Source: a virus
Lineage: Duplodnaviria > Heunggongvirae > Uroviricota > Caudoviricetes
Length of the DNA: 12,343 nucleotides
Virus record (IMG/VR): IMGVR_UViG_2563366949_000005
Direction: 5' to 3' (one strand)
Below are positions 3,399-11,730 of the stretch, one piece after another. The translations under genes and the position numbers were made by a program. The notes below the pieces were generated by a model that had not been told where the DNA came from, ran no database searches, and saw only the letters and a list, made by a program, of their open reading frames with translations. How positions within the stretch are numbered: position 1 is the first letter of the stretch; the number at the start of each line of letters is the position of its first letter.

Positions 3399-6300
3399 AT
3401 GGGTAAAGGCAGCAGTAAGGGGCATACCCCGCGCGAAGCGAAGGACAACCTGAAGTCCACGCAGCTGCTGAGTGTGATCGATGCCATCAGTGAAGGGCCG
3501 ATTGAAGGTCCGGTGGATGGATTAAAAAGCGTGCTGCTGAACAGTACGCCGGTGCTGGACAGTGAGGGGAATACCAATATATCCGGCGTCACGGTGGTGT
3601 TCCGGGCAGGTGAGCAGGAGCAGACACCGCCGGAGGGGTTTGAATCCTCCGGCTCCGAGACGGTGCTGGGTACGGAAGTGAAATATGACACGCCGATCAC
3701 CCGGACCATCACGTCGGCAAACATCGACCGTCTGCGCTTTACCTTCGGTGTGCAGGCACTGGTGGAAACCACTTCAAAGGGGGACCGGAATCCGTCGGAA
3801 GTCCGCCTGCTGGTTCAGATACAGCGTAACGGTGGCTGGGTGACGGAAAAAGACATCACCATTAAGGGCAAAACCACCTCGCAGTATCTGGCCTCGGTGG
3901 TGGTGGATAACCTGCCTCCGCGCCCGTTCAATATCCGGATGCGCAGGATGACACCGGACAGCACTACAGACCAGCTGCAGAACAAAACGCTCTGGTCGTC
4001 ATACACCGAAATCATCGATGTGAAACAGTGCTACCCGAACACGGCACTGGTCGGCGTACAGGTGGACTCGGAGCAGTTCGGCAGCCAGCAGGTGAGCCGT
4101 AATTATCATCTTCGCGGGCGCATTCTGCAGGTTCCGTCGAACTATAACCCGCAGACGCGACAATACAGCGGTATCTGGGACGGAACGTTTAAGCCGGCAT
4201 ACAGCAACAACATGGCCTGGTGTCTGTGGGATATGCTGACCCACCCGCGCTACGGCATGGGGAAACGTCTTGATGCGGCGGATGTGGACAAATGGGCGCT
4301 GTATGTCATCGGCCAGAATTGCGACCAGTCGGTGCCGGACGGCTTTGGCGGCACGGAGCCGCGCATCACCTGTAACGCTTACCTGACCACACAACGTAAG
4401 GCGTGGGATGTGCTCAGTGATTTCTGCTCGGCGATGCGCTGTATGCCGGTATGGAACGGGCAGACGCTGACGTTCGTGCAGGACCGACCGTCGGATAAGG
4501 TGTGGACCTATAACCGCAGTAATGTGGTGATGCCGGATGATGGCGCGCCGTTCCGCTACAGCTTCAGCGCCCTGAAGGACCGCCATAATGCCGTTGAGGT
4601 GAACTGGATTGACCCGAATAACGGCTGGGAAACGGCAACAGAGCTTGTGGAGGACACGCAGGCCATTGCCCGTTACGGTCGTAACGTCACGAAGATGGAT
4701 GCCTTTGGCTGTACCAGCCGGGGGCAGGCACACCGCGCCGGGCTGTGGCTGATTAAAACGGAACTGCTGGAAACGCAGACCGTGGACTTCAGCGTGGGTG
4801 CAGAAGGGCTTCGCCATGTCCCGGGTGATGTCATTGAAATCTGTGATGATGACTATGCGGGCATCAGCATCGGCGGGCGCGTGCTGGCGGTGAACAGCCA
4901 GACGCGGACACTGACGCTCGACCGTGAAATCATGCTGCCATCCTCCGGTACCACGCTGATAAGCCTGGTTGACGGTCAGGGTAATCCGGTCAGCGTGGAG
5001 GTCCAGTCCGTCACCGACGGCGTGAAGGTGAAAGTGAGCCGTGTTCCTGACGGCGTTGCCGGATACAGCGTGTGGGGGCTGAAGTTGCCGACGTTGCGCC
5101 AGCGCCTGTTCCGCTGCGTGAGTATCCGTGAGAACGACGACGGCACGTATGCCATCACCGCCGTGCAGCATGTACCCGAAAAAGAAGCCATCGTGGATAA
5201 CGGGGCGCACTTTGACGGCGACCTGAGCAGCACGGTGAATGGCGTCACGCCGCCCGCGGTGCAGCACCTGACTGCCGAAGTCACCGCAGACAGCGGGGAA
5301 TATCAGGTGCTGGCGCGCTGGGACACGCCGAAGGTGGTGAAGGGGGGGAGCTTTATGCTTCGCCTGACCGTGGCAGCGGATGACGGCAGTGAGCGGCTGG
5401 TCAGCACGGCCAGGACGACGGAAACCACATACCGCTTCAGGCAACTGGCGCTGGGGAACTACAAGCTGACAGTCCGGGCGGTAAATGCGTGGGGGCAGCA
5501 GGGGGATCCGGCGTCAGTATCGTTCCGGATTGCCGCACCGGCAGCGCCATTGCGGATTGAGCTGACGCCGGGCTATTTTCAGATAACCGCCACGCCGCAT
5601 CTTGCCGTTTATGACCCGACGGTACAGTTTGAGTTCTGGTTCTCGGAAAAGCGGATTACCGATATCAGGCAGGTTGAAACCACAGCCCGCTATCTTGGTA
5701 CGGCGCTGTACTGGATAGCCGCCAGTATCAATATCAAACCGGGCCATGATTATTACTTTTATATCCGCAGTGTGAACACCGTTGGCAAATCGGCATTCGT
5801 GGAGGGCGTCGGTCGGGCGAGCGATGATGCGGAAGGTTACCTGGATTTTTTCAAAGGCAAGATAACCGAATCCCATCTCGGTAAAGAGCTGCTGGAAAAA
5901 GTTGATTTGACGGAGGATAACGCCAGCAGACTGGATGAGTTTTCGAAAGAGTGGAAGGACGCTAACGATAAATGGAATGCCATGTGGGGCGTCAAAATTG
6001 AGCAGACCAAAGACGGCAAACATTATGTCGCGGGTATTGGCCTCAGCATGGAGGACACGGAGGAAGGCAAGCTGAGCCAGTTTCTGGTTGCCGCTAACCG
6101 TATCGCGTTTATTGACCCGGCAAACGGGAATGAAACGCCGATGTTTGTGGCGCAGGGCAACCAGATATTCATGAACGACGTGTTCCTGAAGCGCCTGACA
6201 GCCCCCACCATTACCAGCGGTGGCAGTCCTCCGGTATTTTCCCTGACATCAGACGGAAAGCTGACCGCTAAAAATGCGGATATCAGTGGTAGTGTGAATG

Positions 6301-6812
6301 CGAACTCCGGGACGCTCAATAATGTCACGGTAAATGAAAACTGTACGATTAAGGGCATGCTGGAGGCGAACCAGGTCAGAGGTGACTTCGTTAAAACTGT
6401 ATCCAAATCATTCCCGAAAAAGGCTGGTACGTGGGGTAACACGGAAACACCAAACGGGACGGTTACAGTCACCATTTACGATGATCATAACTTTGACCGC
6501 CAAATCATTATTCCGCCCATTATTTTTAACGGTGTGGCGTATGACGATCCGGGGAGCGGTAATAACCCGGGAGGTACGCGATACACGGGTTATGGTTTTG
6601 AAGTTCGCAAAAATGGCGTATTAATCGCATCCAGAGAAACTAAAGGAGCCATTCCCGGTAGTTACAGTGCGGTTATTGATATGCCGAGTGGTGGTGGTAA
6701 CGTCACTCTGGAGTTTAAGATTTTCCAGAAAGGCAATCAGGGCGCAGGTAACATCACAGACTGTACGGTGATTGTGACCAAAAAAGCTGCTTCCGGTATC
6801 AGTATCCGTTGA
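3399..6812 (+). CDS. J: Host specificity / tip attachment protein J (central tail fibre), 1137 aa
   Basis: Very long ORF with a GAGGAA Shine-Dalgarno 5-6 nt upstream of ATG 3399. Size is close to lambda gpJ (about 1132 aa) and it follows I in canonical order. The large antisense ORF 3999..5444 is a GC-content artefact. Confidence 0.95.
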
Positions 6813-6832: not shown

Positions 6833-6860
6833 GGGTGCCAGAAATGGCGCCTTTTTTATT
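6833..6860 (+). terminator. Putative rho-independent terminator downstream of J
   Basis: A 6-bp stem GGTGCC / GGCGCC (one G-U pair) with loop AGAAAT is followed by TTTTTTATTT. It sits between the J stop (6812) and the stf ribosome-binding site. Confidence 0.45.
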
Positions 6861-6872
6861 TGTGGAGTGAGT

Positions 6873-9245
6873 ATGGCAGTACAGATTTCAGGTGTGCTGA
6901 AAGACGGCACAGGAAAACCGGTACAGAACTGCACAATCCAGCTGAAAGCAAAACGTAACAGTACCACGGTACTGGTGAACACGGTGGCCTCTGAAAATCC
7001 GGATGAAGCCGGGCGTTACAGCATGGATGTTGAGTATGGCCAGTACAGCGTTATCCTGCTTGTTGAAGGTTTTCCGCCTTCACATGCCGGAACCATTACC
7101 GTCTATGAAGGTTCCAGACCAGGTACGCTGAATGATTTTCTCGGTGCCATGACGGAAGATGATGTCATGCCGGAGGCATTGCGTCGTTTTGAGGAAATGG
7201 TGGAAGAAGCGGCACGCAACGCTGAAGCCGCCTCTCAGAGCGCAGCGGCGGCAAAGAAATCCGAAACTGCAGCGGCATCATCGAAGAACGCGGCGAAAAC
7301 CTCAGAAACGAATGCAGCTAACAGCGCACAGGCGGCAGCGGCCTCGCAGACTGCATCGGCAAACTCCGCAACAGCAGCTAAAAAATCAGAAACCAACGCG
7401 AAAAATAGCGAGACAGCCGCAAAGACGAGCGAAACCAACGCAAAGTCCAGCCAGACGGCAGCGAAGACCAGCGAAACGAATGCTAAAGCCAGTGAAACTG
7501 CAGCAAAAAACAGCCAGGTTGCAGCAGCCCAAAGCGAGAGCGCGGCAGCCGGTTCTGCGACTTCAGCAGCTGGATCAGCAACTGCTGCGGCTAACAGCCA
7601 GAAAGCTGCGAAGACGAGTGAAACTAACGCAAAGTCCAGCCAGACGGCAGCGAAGACCAGCGAAACGAATGCCAAAGCCAGTGAAACTGCGGCGAAAAGC
7701 AGTCAGGATGCAGCGGCCCAAAGCGAGAGTGCCGCAGCCAGTTCTGCAAGCGCGGCGGCTGCTTCTGCTACTGCATCAGCTAACAGTCAAAAAGCAGCAA
7801 AAACCAGTGAAACCAACGCAAAGGTGAGCGAAACAGCGGCTGCGAACTCAGCGAAAGCATCGGCAGCAAGCCAGACGGCAGCTAAAGCAAGCGAAGATGC
7901 AGCCAGAGAGTACGCAAGCCAGGCTGCGGAGCCGTATAAATATGTCTTACAGCCGCTGCCTGATGTGTGGATACCATTTAACGATTCGCTGGATATGATT
8001 ACGGGCTTTTCGCCATCATATAAAAAAATTGTTATTGGTGACGATGAAATAACGATGCCTGGCGACAAGATTGTTAAGTTTAAACGTGCATCGAAAGCAA
8101 CCTATATTAACAAATCTGGTGTGCTGACAGAGGCTGCCATTGACGAGCCACGATTTGAACGTGATGGCCTGCTTATTGAGGGGCAAAGAACAAACTACAT
8201 GCTCAATTCGGAAAGCCCTGCCAGTTGGGGGCGATCGTCAAATATGGATGTGCCCGAAACAGGGACGGATAATTTTGGTTTTACCTATGGAAAGTTTGTC
8301 TGCAACGATTCTCTGATTGGGCAAACCTCAGCCATTAATATGGCATCAATTGCTGCAACAAAGTCAGTTGATGTCTCAGGCGATAATAAACACGTGACAA
8401 CCTCATGTCGTTTTAAAACAGAACTGCAGGTAAGGTTGCGTATCCGGTTTGATAAATATGACGGTAGCGCAACAACTTTTCTTGGTGATGCGTATATTGA
8501 TACACAAACGCTTGAAATTAATATGACAGGCGGTGCTGCCTCAAGAATTACAGCGAGAGTCAGAAAGGACGAAGCTACCGGATGGATTTTTGCAGAGGCA
8601 ACAATTCAGGCAATTGATGGGGAGTTAAAAATAGGCTCTCAGATACAGTATTCTCCTAAGCAGAGCGGGGCAACCGTATCTGGTGACTATATTTATCTGG
8701 CCACCCCACAAGTAGAAGATGGGCCTTGTGTATCATCTTTTATTATATCAGGAGCGACGGCGGCGACCCGCGCAAGCGATATAGTTACAGTTCCAATTAA
8801 GAATAATCTTTATAATCTTCCTTTTACGGTTCTTTGTGAGGTACATAAGAACTGGTATAAAACGCCAAATGCAGCGCCACGTGTTTTTGATACCGGCGGT
8901 CATCAAACCGGAGCGGCTATTATTCTTGGCTTCGGTCGTTCAACAGATTACGACGGATTTCCTTATTGCGATATTGGAGGAGCTAACAGACGGGTAAACG
9001 AAAACGCATCGCTTGAAAAAATGGTTATGGGGATGCGTGTAAAGTCAGAGCAGTCTACGTGCTCAGTAAGTAACGGGCATATATCCAGCGAAACAAAAAC
9101 CACATGGTCCTGTATTCAGAACACCGCAATTATCCGTATTGGAGGCCAGACTACAGCCGGGTTACGTCATTTATTTGGTCATGTCAGGAATTTCAGAATA
9201 TGGCACAAGGCATTGACTGATGCTCAGGTGGGGGAGTCAATCTAA
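6873..9245 (+). CDS. stf: Side tail fibre protein (Stf-like): conserved N-terminal anchor, Ala/Ser/Thr-rich repeat shaft, divergent AT-rich C-terminal domain
   Basis: N-terminus MAVQISGVLKDGTGKPVQNCTIQLKA...GFPPSHAGTITVYEGS matches the conserved N-terminal domain of lambdoid Stf proteins as I recall it. The ORF track starts at GTG 6867, but ATG 6873 with GGAG 5 nt upstream is the more likely start. The central part has 63-aa tandem repeats (AAKTSETNAKSSQTAAK...). The C-terminal part, about 440 aa, is encoded by visibly AT-richer DNA. Confidence 0.85.
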   Translation: MAVQISGVLKDGTGKPVQNCTIQLKAKRNSTTVLVNTVASENPDEAGRYSMDVEYGQYSVILLVEGFPPSHAGTITVYEGSRPGTLNDFLGAMTEDDVMPEALRRFEEMVEEAARNAEAASQSAAAAKKSETAAASSKNAAKTSETNAANSAQAAAASQTASANSATAAKKSETNAKNSETAAKTSETNAKSSQTAAKTSETNAKASETAAKNSQVAAAQSESAAAGSATSAAGSATAAANSQKAAKTSETNAKSSQTAAKTSETNAKASETAAKSSQDAAAQSESAAASSASAAAASATASANSQKAAKTSETNAKVSETAAANSAKASAASQTAAKASEDAAREYASQAAEPYKYVLQPLPDVWIPFNDSLDMITGFSPSYKKIVIGDDEITMPGDKIVKFKRASKATYINKSGVLTEAAIDEPRFERDGLLIEGQRTNYMLNSESPASWGRSSNMDVPETGTDNFGFTYGKFVCNDSLIGQTSAINMASIAATKSVDVSGDNKHVTTSCRFKTELQVRLRIRFDKYDGSATTFLGDAYIDTQTLEINMTGGAASRITARVRKDEATGWIFAEATIQAIDGELKIGSQIQYSPKQSGATVSGDYIYLATPQVEDGPCVSSFIISGATAATRASDIVTVPIKNNLYNLPFTVLCEVHKNWYKTPNAAPRVFDTGGHQTGAAIILGFGRSTDYDGFPYCDIGGANRRVNENASLEKMVMGMRVKSEQSTCSVSNGHISSETKTTWSCIQNTAIIRIGGQTTAGLRHLFGHVRNFRIWHKALTDAQVGESI
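7422..7800 (+). repeat. Tandem direct repeat of about 189 bp (two near-identical copies, partial third) inside stf
   Basis: Copy 1 begins aagacgagcgaaaccaacgcaaagtccagccagacggcagcgaagaccagcgaaacgaatgc at about 7422. Copy 2 begins aagacgagtgaaactaacgcaaagtccagccagacggcagcgaagaccagcgaaacgaatgc at about 7611. The period is 189 bp (63 codons) and the protein repeats are TNAKSSQTAAKTSETNAKASETAAK. Confidence 0.75.
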
Positions 9246-9526
9246 TGAAAGATTTAACACTCAAATTTGCCGACAGGGCCGACTTTTCGGCCTTTATGGA
9301 GAGTATTGGCTATTATGATGACGAGTCGATGCAGGATGATATTCTTATTGACGTGATAGGTAACGCGTACAAAGAAACCGGAGAACTGACTGAAGATGGC
9401 GAACCGGTATGTGTTAAGGAAGACGGATATTTTGTAAACGTGCGCATCATTAATGATTCGCAAATATCGTCATTATTCGATGAATACGTGGTTGCTGTTG
9501 AGCATCAACTTCGTGGCTGGATGTGA
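9245..9526 (+). CDS. Hypothetical small acidic protein (93 aa), translationally coupled to stf
   Basis: ATG at 9245 overlaps the stf stop (TAATG). The protein is strongly acidic (many D/E, few K/R). It shares low GC with the stf 3' half and the downstream gene. It does not resemble lambda Tfa as far as I can judge. Confidence 0.6.
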   Translation: MKDLTLKFADRADFSAFMESIGYYDDESMQDDILIDVIGNAYKETGELTEDGEPVCVKEDGYFVNVRIINDSQISSLFDEYVVAVEHQLRGWM

Positions 9527-9535
9527 GGAAGAAAA

Positions 9536-10576
9536 ATGGCTACATCGACAGTAATTCCTGATGACATCAAAACGCTAAAATCCGACGTTAGCAAATTAAA
9601 AAACGATCAAGGAAGCTACGCAACAAAATTATATGTTGACAGCAAAGATGAAATCGTTGGTGACTGGTCTGCTTCATGGTATCAGCAGGTATTGCCAACT
9701 AGCGGAGCTATATTTGGGAGAAAACTCCGCTCAACTCACAGGACGGCAGGTGTTGAGGATGCGTATTGCGAGCTATACCTCAAAAAATGGATAGACAGCC
9801 CAGGTAACGCAATGGCGCGCCTTAACCTGAACGATAACGGGACAAACATTTGCTGGGACTTTACCAACCTTTATGGCGGTACGATGATTTTTCCCGGTGA
9901 CAGCGGATACCTCAAAATGGGTAACTGCCTTATGTCATACAGCAAGCGTGGAAGTAACGCGCTTATTAAATTTGATTACACCGACACATTACAGATCAAA
10001 TATGCCAATCATGGGTCAACCATGACATTAAACACACAGGGAACCGCTTATGCTGGTGTTACTGCTCAATTGTGGGGCAACTCCAGCCGTCCTGTTGTTT
10101 ATGAAGTCGGTGTTGATGGTGGCGCTTATATGTTCTATGCGCAGAAAAATACCGATAACACCTATATGTTAAGCGTTAATGGTGCATGTCATGCCACCGC
10201 ATTTAACCAGCATTCCGACCGGGATCTGAAAGACAACATTCAGGTGATCGATAATGCAACCGACCGCATCCGTAAAATGAACGGCTACACATACACGCTT
10301 AAAGAAAACGGTATGCCCTATGCTGGTGTCATTGCACAGGAAGCTCTGGAAGCAATCCCAGAAGTTGTAGGTTCCGCAATGAAATATCAGGACGGTGCGA
10401 GCGGATCGGAAGGTGAAGAAGGTGAACGTTATTACACAGTAGATTATTCTGGTGTTACTGGCTTGCTTGTTCAGGTAGCCAGAGAGTCAGACGACAGAAT
10501 AACAGCACTGGAAGAAGAAAACGCAGAATTAAGACAAAGATTATCTGCAATTGATGCGGCGCTTGCGTCTAAATAA
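9536..10576 (+). CDS. Tail fibre / receptor-binding tip protein with C-terminal peptidase-S74 intramolecular chaperone (autoproteolytic) domain, 346 aa
   Basis: GAGGAAG Shine-Dalgarno 5 nt upstream of ATG 9536, 9 nt after the orf93 stop. The C-terminal ~120 aa carry the S74/endosialidase-chaperone signature: HSDRDLKDNI ... GYTYTLKENG ... YAGVIAQEALEAIPEVV ... YTVDYSGVTGLLVQVARE, then a heptad-like tail (ITALEEENAELRQRLSAIDAALASK). A terminator-like hairpin follows the stop. Confidence 0.75.
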   Translation: MATSTVIPDDIKTLKSDVSKLKNDQGSYATKLYVDSKDEIVGDWSASWYQQVLPTSGAIFGRKLRSTHRTAGVEDAYCELYLKKWIDSPGNAMARLNLNDNGTNICWDFTNLYGGTMIFPGDSGYLKMGNCLMSYSKRGSNALIKFDYTDTLQIKYANHGSTMTLNTQGTAYAGVTAQLWGNSSRPVVYEVGVDGGAYMFYAQKNTDNTYMLSVNGACHATAFNQHSDRDLKDNIQVIDNATDRIRKMNGYTYTLKENGMPYAGVIAQEALEAIPEVVGSAMKYQDGASGSEGEEGERYYTVDYSGVTGLLVQVARESDDRITALEEENAELRQRLSAIDAALASK

Positions 10577-10582
10577 TATTAA

Positions 10583-10605
10583 GGGGCCGAGCGCCCCGTT
10601 TTATT
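10583..10605 (+). terminator. Putative rho-independent terminator after the 346-aa fibre gene
   Basis: A GC-rich 5-bp stem GGGGC / GCCCC with loop CGAGC is followed by GTTTTATT, 7 nt after the stop at 10576. Confidence 0.5.
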
Positions 10606-10618
10606 GGGTAGGATGAAA

Positions 10619-10912
10619 ATGGATATAACACCTTTCCTTCATGCGCTTTGTGCTGTGGCTGCGCAGCTACTGATTGGTCTTTTTACCGGGAACTGGGCTT
10701 ACGGGGCGATAGCCGGTTGTACGTTCTTCATTGCGCGTGAACACACCCAGGCAGAATATCGCTGGATCGAAATGTTCGGGCATGGCAAGCGAATGAATAT
10801 GCCGTGGTGGGGCGGTTTTGATACACGTGCATGGGATGTGGCAAGCCTGATGGATTTTGCTGTGCCGGTGGTGGCGTGTCTGCTGGTCTGGCTGTTGGTT
10901 AATCGTGGGTGA
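10619..10912 (+). CDS. Small predicted integral membrane protein (about 97 aa, 2-3 hydrophobic segments), function unknown
   Basis: The ORF track begins at TTG 10604. In-frame ATGs at 10613 and 10619 are more plausible, with AGGA at 10610-10613. Hydrophobic stretches are FLHALCAVAAQLLIGLF, AYGAIAGCTFFIA and FAVPVVACLLVWLLV. The exact start is uncertain. Confidence 0.55.
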   Translation: MDITPFLHALCAVAAQLLIGLFTGNWAYGAIAGCTFFIAREHTQAEYRWIEMFGHGKRMNMPWWGGFDTRAWDVASLMDFAVPVVACLLVWLLVNRG

Positions 10913-11139: not shown

Positions 11140-11730
11140 TTATATGTCAGGTGTCTGAAGTTTTGCTTTGGCTCTTAAAATGGTTTGCCGCGAGGTTTTG
11201 AATTCCCGGGCAATGGCACTTATACTTACACCTGACTTAATTCGTTCGAATACCACCTGTTTCTGTTCTTCATTTAACACAGGTGGTCGACCAAAACGTT
11301 TCCCTGCGCCCCGGGCTCTTACTATCCCGGAATGAGTGCGTTCAAGTAAAAGGTCTCGTTCAAATTCAGCGACTGCTGAAATTACTTGCATCATCATTTT
11401 TCCTGTTGGACTGGTCAGGTCAATGCCCCCCAATGCTAAGCAATGCACTCTGATACCTGTTTCGGTCAGTTGTTCCACTGTTTTCCTGATATCCATTGCA
11501 TTACAACCAAGGCGATCCAGTTTTGTCACAATCAATTGATCACCACATTTCAGGCGAGCAAGCAACCGGTTAAAACCAGGACGCTCACTGGTTGCTGCTG
11601 AGCCGCTAATGTGTTCTTCGATTATTTGCTGAGGTTTGATTTTAAAACCTGCACTTTCGATTTCCCGGCGTTGATTTTCGGTGGTCTGATCCAGCGTTGA
11701 TATCCGACAGTAAGCAAAAATTCGAGACAT
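11140..11730 (-). CDS. Small serine recombinase (resolvase/invertase family), 196 aa
   Basis: The N-terminus [15 protein letters not shown] contains the catalytic Ser/Arg motif of serine recombinases. A KLDRLGC motif and a C-terminal helix-turn-helix ([21 protein letters not shown]) are present. The start is an ATG (complement of CAT at 11728-11730) and the stop is TAA at 11140-11142. Confidence 0.9.

Follow-up and report, generated by a model that had tools for sequence, protein, structure and literature searches.

Branched side fibers, in which an anchored proximal fiber carries a second receptor-binding protein, have been described in two settings close to the locus studied here. In phages DT57C and DT571/2, the L-shaped fibers consist of the anchored LtfA and of LtfB, an S74-bearing protein devoid of an anchor that LtfA carries via the LtfB N terminus, with genetic proof that LtfB can be borne in this way and brings a second O-antigen specificity; LtfA and LtfB recognize different O-antigens, and LtfB is dispensable on some hosts (PMC4728585, PMC10713586). 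In the BASEL-II study, AlphaFold-Multimer placed IrisVonRoten Gp24 distally on the proximal fiber Gp22, the C-terminal galectin-like domain of Gp22 being a possible extra binding domain, while Gp23 was not discussed (PMC11990801). Here, we analyzed three consecutive genes, stf, orf93, and orf346, in a 12,343-nucleotide (12.3-kb) stretch of viral DNA (Caudoviricetes; IMG/VR record IMGVR_UViG_2563366949_000005), hereafter the window, which is the late tail region of an Escherichia coli lambdoid phage. Given these precedents, a branched architecture is plausible for this locus but is already known, and the locus extends the proximal-plus-distal fiber arrangement of the IrisVonRoten type. What is new is the lambdoid version of the cassette, whose distal protein is short and has a single tip, the strict association of the small protein with the head of the large fiber, the dispensable and cassette-like nature of the distal protein, and a chained arrangement in a related contig. 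Our comparative data show that the obligate partner of the small acidic protein Orf93 is the ~430-aa C-terminal head of Stf and not Orf346, which is optional.

The genes encoding Gp22, Gp23, and Gp24 of IrisVonRoten (Bas32, Tequintavirus) form a homologous cassette in the same gene order. The Gp22 head is ~65 to 70% identical to the Stf head of the window and Gp23 is 39% identical to Orf93, whereas Gp24 aligns with Orf346 over aa 1 to 17 (10/17 identical) and over the S74 region only. The two loci also differ in their tail anchors, T5 pb1-type in IrisVonRoten but lambda Stf-type in the window, and in their distal proteins, since Gp24 (574 aa) is "T-shaped" and has both a gp12-like receptor-binding domain 1 (RBD1) and a T5-like RBD2, whereas Orf346 has 346 aa and a single unrelated tip. 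The DT57C system has another gene organization: LtfA lacks a terminal lectin head and ends in its own S74 domain, and a small gene between ltfA and ltfB has not been described. LtfB docks by 45 N-terminal aa that are related to phiEco32 gp15, and the docking region of LtfA is related to phiEco32 gp14.

In the window, the three genes lie on the plus strand. The ORF (open reading frame) of stf, the proximal side tail fiber gene annotated as the lambda stf homologue in phage Tritos, extends from a GTG at 6867 to 9245 and matches phrog_1419 over its full length; translation probably starts at the ATG at 6873, which the Tritos annotation also uses. The stf stop codon TAA (9243-9245) overlaps the ATG of orf93 (9245-9247) in a TAATG at 9243-9247. 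The small acidic accessory gene orf93 (9245-9526, 93 aa, 10.7 kDa) stops with a TGA at 9524-9526, which is overlapped by a GAGGAAG ribosome-binding site (9525-9531), and the ATG of orf346 (9536-10576, 346 aa) follows at 9536 after a 9-nt spacer. Across 85 loci, this 9-nt distance is kept with few exceptions. Both short ORFs match PHROG families over their full length, orf93 phrog_1361 (E = 1.2e-45) and orf346 phrog_4563 (E = 2.5e-220), and are real genes. The overlap and the spacer with its ribosome-binding site had been noticed in a previous reading of this DNA made from the letters alone (the sequence-only reading) and are confirmed at these positions, as is the acidity of Orf93, with an isoelectric point (pI) of 4.05 and 21 Asp/Glu versus 7 Lys/Arg. 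Over 9000-10700, the DNA shares 100% identity with phage PhiR63_1 and ~99% with Tritos, 2G7b, and HannyBb, and it is matched at least in part in 1,322 of 5,426 complete E. coli genomes.

The sequence-only reading had raised the question of whether orf93 and orf346 always co-occur; comparative genomics shows that they are no obligate pair and points instead to a coupling between the Stf head and Orf93. For this comparison, we assembled 132 loci with 133 genes for the small protein from close and distant IMG/VR relatives and annotated phages, and we refer below to the large fiber as A, to the small protein of the Orf93 type as S, and to the S74 fiber of the Orf346 type as B. The A-S-B order recurs in phages with differing tail anchors, namely, lambdoid phages (Tritos, PhiR63_1), Nonagvirus (ESCO3, JenP1), Seuratvirus (VogelGryff, KurtStettler), Tequintavirus/T5-like phages (SIA3lw, IrisVonRoten), and Drexlerviridae/T1-like phages (swan01), the Queuovirinae and Dhillonvirus being among the groups with the three-gene cassette. 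S is detectable in 181 phage records, which include Dhillonvirus, rV5-like myoviruses, and BASEL model phages. In 130 of the 133 cases, the protein encoded before S ends in the A-type motif, and in most instances its stop codon overlaps the start codon of S; the other three comprise two divergent motifs and one rearranged locus. No Orf93 homologue was found outside fiber modules among these 133 cases and the 181 phage records, nor was B ever found without the head and the small protein among the loci examined.

Conversely, the small protein is found without B. The gene downstream of S could be read in 111 cases, with 86 B genes of the E. coli-type N terminus, 17 B genes with another N terminus (MAxRKD...; some of them carry S74, others a Phage_tail_C_2 tip), and 8 cases without B. 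The rV5-like phages (EmilHeitz) have the head and the small gene only, as does PhiR40_1, a phage record propagated on ECOR13, in which the membrane-protein gene found after orf346 in the window follows S at the same 9-nt spacing. Five IMG/VR contigs likewise carry the head and S without B, with a Mu/P2-type tail gene after S. In PhiR47_1 and PhiR11_1, A and S are strongly diverged while B is ~85% identical to orf346 in DNA. A further combination occurs in IMGVR_UViG_3300011762_000002 (locus L090, 3815-7903), where the gene for a 728-aa fiber bearing an A-type head precedes a small gene of 94 aa; next come a 441-aa protein in which a 14-aa N-terminal peptide is fused directly to a second A-type head (PF13385 above cutoff) and then a second small gene. 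Altogether, the synteny in 130 of 133 cases, the B-less loci, the chained L090 locus, and the mixed combinations of PhiR47_1 and PhiR11_1 argue that S is tied to the head and that B is optional.

The head to which the small protein appears to be tied is the constant part of the A proteins. Their tail anchor varies with the phage group, but their C-terminal ~430 aa are always the same, running from QPLPDVWIPFNDSLDMITGF to GHVRNFRIWHKALTD..ESI. In the window, Stf begins with a lambda-type tail anchor (PF08400, aa 3 to 133, E = 6.9e-68), continues with a rod of Ala/Ser/Thr-rich repeats (approximately aa 100 to 353), and finishes with the lectin-like head (7926-9242; aa 354 to 792), ending ...GHVRNFRIWHKALTDAQVGESI. 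Within the head, the segments aa 374 to 453, 634 to 673, and 754 to 792 are conserved among relatives, and the beta-sandwich between the first two is the variable part. Residues 436 to 636 pass the NCBIfam model NF048003 (GTA_spike_fiber) with 50.5 bits for a cutoff of 36, phmmer relates the head to the RcGTA head-spike fiber Rcc01080 (E = 1e-7), and the core confidently predicted by AlphaFold2 (aa 448 to 619) resembles carbohydrate-binding modules. The C-terminal end (approximately aa 634 to 792), for which AlphaFold2 gave no confident model, scores 19.5 bits against PF13385, below the gathering score of 27.6; its homologue in B of L090, which aligns end to end with the Stf head (E = 2e-46), reaches 34.7 bits, above the gathering score, so that this end of the Stf head appears to be LamG-like by homology.

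A glycan-binding domain of its own is thus plausible for Stf, and with such a putative domain no Tfa-type gene would be needed. Its characterized relative Rcc01080 is a single chain that binds capsular polysaccharide and whose residues 2 to 10 are held in pockets of a base protein (PMC7296036, PMC10218006). Rcc01080 (PDB 6tb9) resembles the variable beta-sandwich of the Stf head by sequence homology, and its attachment by a short N-terminal peptide recalls the docking that we propose for Orf346. However, it is a single-chain decoration of capsid vertices and not the end of a trimeric tail fiber, the greater part of the LamG-like end is missing from it, and an Orf93-like partner has not been reported. 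Two side observations concern the architecture of Stf. The rod (7170-7925) is built of repeated KTSETNAK-type Ala/Ser/Thr-rich units, and close homologues vary between ~650 and 757 aa, which suggests gain or loss of rod repeat units. Stf-type heads are also found on proteins with P2/Mu-type fiber N-terminal parts (PF03406, PF12571; P0247, P0248, P0310, and P0314 in our protein set), so that this head is exchanged between the fibers of siphoviruses and those of myoviruses.

The third gene encodes a protein with the hallmarks of an S74 intramolecular chaperone, as the sequence-only reading had proposed. A profile search assigned aa 227 to 278 of Orf346 to PF13884 (Peptidase_S74; E = 4.8e-14; 52.8 bits versus a cutoff of 22). 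The motif SDRDLKDNI starts at Ser227, with Lys232 at +5, and aligns to SDRRIK in the C-terminal part of S16 gp37 (6f45). In T5 pb1, the chain is cut between Thr1263 and Ser1264, with a Ser1264/Lys1269 pair (PMC4690869). From this precedent and from the start of the Pfam domain at Ser227, Orf346 would cleave itself between His226 and Ser227; the site proposed earlier, just before the Ser of SDRDLKDNI, thus agrees with the pb1 pair, the length of the mature part being corrected from ~224 to 226 aa (24.9 kDa). The predicted mature protein (9536-10213) would comprise the docking peptide discussed below, a short heptad stretch, and a beta-rich distal tip, and the chaperone (10214-10576; Ser227, Lys232, and a C-terminal coiled coil) would be released as a C-terminal fragment of ~13 kDa. 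As in the S74 chaperones of T5 pb1 and of endosialidases, the domain with its Ser/Lys pair lies at the C terminus after the distal tip, and its expected release would expose the binding site. Unlike pb1, a single anchored fiber of 1,396 aa, Orf346 is the tip part encoded as a separate gene, and no sequence match was found between the two tips. The previous view that the mature part lacks a virion anchor also stands, as the profile search found neither a PF08400 match nor another recognizable tail anchor in Orf346. Residues 92 to 342 match the C-terminal ends of long tail fibers (phrog_5668, phrog_6578). One end of phrog_6578, a family of 1,210-aa fibers, matches the N-terminal part of Stf and the other end matches Orf346 aa 132 to 342, so that the Orf346 body corresponds to a genuine distal tip of Stf-type fibers.

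The B proteins have in common only their first ~17 residues (MATSTVIPDDIKTLKSD, encoded at 9536-9586 in the window, or MVTKT[VI]IPTDIT.LK..) and the C-terminal S74 domain. In lambdoid phages, the N-terminal peptide is common to the two main alleles of 346 aa (37 loci) and 234 aa (24 loci), the shorter one, with S74 from residue 116, passing PF13884 with 27.2 bits. The B proteins of JenP1, KurtStettler, SIA3lw, IrisVonRoten, swan01, and PhiR47_1 keep 10 to 14 of the 17 peptide residues while their bodies differ; predicted mature lengths run from 98 to 470 aa, and whole proteins reach 580 aa outside lambdoids. DNA homology of other phages to the window begins ~21 nt before the orf346 ATG, which identifies the orf93/orf346 junction as a cassette boundary and recombination junction. 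Since the peptide is constant while the bodies are exchangeable, and since B always lies beside this head and its small protein even where the tails are unrelated, this ~17-aa segment is best read as a docking peptide. A search of a protein collection with aa 1 to 50 of Orf346 returned short fragments only. Among the B genes with the E. coli-type N terminus, 79 of 86 are intact and carry the S74 domain. Many prophage copies of orf346 are truncated or frameshifted, with 90, 189, 227, 294, or 323 aa (loci L048, L027, L077, L011, and L088), and the cassette region is broken by insertion sequences (IS) of the IS2 or IS3 family in some E. coli genomes (hits H31 and H42); such losses fit a dispensable distal protein. 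S74 domains are normally the end of a protein. In KurtStettler (Bas22; locus L087, 4531-6063), the S74 protein unusually runs ~210 aa past the chaperone, with a Gly-rich stretch (GIGGAIGGLIGSWIGNGWGGNGGWGGRG) and a Cys/Gln-rich tail ending in CC.

Orf93 itself has no characterized relative. It has no match in Pfam, NCBIfam, or PDB, a comparison with structural neighbors gave no informative relative, no PF08400 anchor was found in it, and the virion proteomics papers for rV5 and 9g are silent on the small protein. AlphaFold2 predicts a small alpha/beta fold (predicted local distance difference test score, 86.7) with an exposed long beta-hairpin, and the family conserves the motifs MKDLxLKF, DxIG, GYFVNxRI, and PxRxWA. 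Among 1.84 billion representatives, the family accounts for 49 clusters (50% identity) and is thus narrow. Lambda Tfa, Mu U, P2 G, and T4 gp38 are fiber assembly proteins encoded just downstream of fiber genes, one per receptor-binding domain, with which they covary. Orf93 shares with them its position and its covariation with the head, but it is half their size and its client would be a globular lectin-like head and not a trimeric tip; no profile or fold similarity to characterized fiber chaperones of the Tfa/U/G type was found.

On balance, and with some reserve, we lean toward a three-part model in which Stf forms a trimeric rod with three lectin heads, Orf93 serves the head as a dedicated helper or as a subunit bound to it, and Orf346 folds by itself, releases its chaperone, and docks on the distal end of Stf. 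In this model, Stf would be the proximal fiber, composed of the tail anchor, a long trimeric Ala-rich rod, and one ~430-aa glycan-binding, lectin-like head per chain. Orf93, made in step with Stf via the TAATG coupling, would be the dedicated partner of the head, most likely as a folding or assembly helper or else as a small subunit staying on the head. Orf346 would be an optional and exchangeable second receptor-binding protein, whose S74 domain would drive the folding of the trimer before cutting itself off between His226 and Ser227. The mature protein would then use its ~17-residue N-terminal peptide to attach at the distal end of Stf, where it would contact the head region or the complex of the head with Orf93. 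Such a fiber would offer two distinct binding sites, the probable ligands being O-antigen or capsule. The proposal in the sequence-only reading of a dual-specificity fiber with a second receptor-binding protein is thus plausible, given the lectin-like head of Stf, the conserved peptide of Orf346, and the same arrangement in the BASEL-II study (PMC11990801).

Several points weigh against this model. Rcc01080 could be produced in E. coli in the absence of any Orf93-like partner (PMC10218006), so that a folding role would not be required for the whole head. The AlphaFold2 model of the whole Stf head, computed from an alignment in which every sequence had 77% or more identity to the query, is confident for aa 448 to 619 only. 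The contacts among the three proteins, and with them the docking of Orf346 on Stf or Orf93, are ones that we infer. Moreover, across 67 loci (60 with a single S type), identity in the small protein correlates more closely with that in the N-terminal 17 aa of B (rho 0.78) than with that in the C-terminal 17 aa of Stf (rho 0.60), both segments lying directly beside the small gene. An adaptor role of Orf93 would fit this difference, but simple genetic linkage explains it. As an adaptor, Orf93 would be a structural connector on the Stf head, offering a socket for the N-terminal peptide of Orf346, e.g., by beta-strand addition, and forming the joint of a branched fiber. The location of orf93 exactly between two fiber genes with the fixed 9-nt spacing, the exposed beta-hairpin of its predicted fold, and the cohesion of the Orf93 type and the Orf346 peptide while the 346-aa and 234-aa bodies swap would all suit such a connector, and peptide-in-socket joints do exist in this family, as the RcGTA fiber is anchored by a 9-residue peptide in pockets of the base protein (PMC7296036). 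Nevertheless, the invariant residues of Orf93 are constant across differing N termini of B (MATSTVIP... versus MAxRKD...), the head end motif is conserved in all groups, and the correlation is confounded by linkage. Orf93 homologues are kept without B in PhiR40_1, in EmilHeitz, in the five IMG/VR contigs, and for the second small gene of L090, which indicates a role independent of B. We therefore rate the connector, the main rival of our model, as a possibility on the unlikely side. We are equally doubtful of its generalization, according to which the Orf93 family would be a hitherto unrecognized universal joint for lectin-headed fibers, binding the LamG-like end and capturing the N-terminal peptide of the next protein. 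If true, phages of at least five groups could plug in, swap, or chain binding modules, L090 being an example.

In another explanation, Orf346 would be an independent short fiber located elsewhere on the tail tip, or a free or remnant protein, the gene order reflecting only the cotransfer of host range genes. The truncated or IS-interrupted prophage copies are compatible with this, as is the presence of PhiR40_1 and PhiR47_1, in which B is missing or frameshifted, among the propagated isolates of a phage collection. However, Orf346 has no anchor domain; the same peptide occurs with lambda-like, T1-like, 9g-like, and T5-like tails, where the only shared neighbor of B is the head with the small protein, without which B was never seen in these loci. 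The large majority of intact B genes with S74 kept also speaks against it, and we consider this explanation improbable. The sequence-only reading had also entertained an unrelated moron, such as an acidic DNA-mimic antirestriction protein, for Orf93. Apart from its acidity and missing annotation, nothing favors this proposal, which we abandon as very improbable: the gene keeps strict synteny in the fiber modules of both temperate and virulent phages, with a start codon overlapping the stop codon of a fiber gene, and was not found elsewhere among the loci examined; the family is narrow and matches no Pfam model, antirestriction families included; and the predicted fold is a small alpha/beta sandwich and not an elongated DNA-like surface.

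Side fibers determine the O-antigen or capsule types through which a phage can pass, and the present cassette is common, as indicated by the partial matches in about a quarter of the complete E. coli genomes and by the phage records with the small protein. The distal tip is a self-contained gene that is exchangeable ~20 nt before its start codon and after ~17 codons, which offers a site for rational engineering of the host range. Since the small protein belongs to the lectin head, it should be coexpressed when the head is produced or transplanted, and its role can be directly tested in tractable phages.

The surroundings of the cassette are those of a lambdoid tail region, the window containing successively the end of the tape-measure gene, homologues of M, L, K, and I, J (3399-6812), stf, orf93, orf346, a gene for a small membrane protein, and one for a serine recombinase. 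The sequence-only reading had closed the transcription unit with a terminator-like hairpin after orf346, and this was its weakest part. A short and weak G+C hairpin is indeed present on the plus strand at 10583-10597 (GGGGCCGAGCGCCCC then GTTTTATT), but its stem has only 5 bp, the scan found 8 terminator-like sites versus 5.8 expected by chance, and the membrane-protein gene begins ~22 nt after it, so the closure of the unit is doubtful. This gene (plus strand, 10619-10912, with the ATG at 10619 as the likely start inside the listed ORF 10604-10912) encodes a conserved small membrane protein of the phrog_1443 family (E = 3.3e-58, match from residue 6) with the motif FIAREHTQAEYRWI and is probably in the same unit as the fiber cassette. 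A phrog_1443 protein also comes after the cassette in Tritos, PhiR40_1, PhiR47_1, and PhiR11_1, with a homologue in L090 (7903-8301), and seems to travel with the fiber genes; it might act in superinfection exclusion or receptor masking, but this is no more than a guess. Near the fiber genes, the minus strand encodes a serine recombinase of 196 aa (11140-11730; Resolvase and HTH_7; PinR in the Tritos annotation). An invertible fiber switch driven by this recombinase was considered and rejected for the window, as no convincing inverted repeats bracket the fiber genes. Lastly, the lom gene, located between J and stf in PhiR40_1 and PhiR47_1, is absent from the window, where a strong terminator-like hairpin (6833-6852; 8-bp stem then TTTTTATTT) lies between J and stf, and expression of stf would need either read-through of this hairpin or a promoter of its own.

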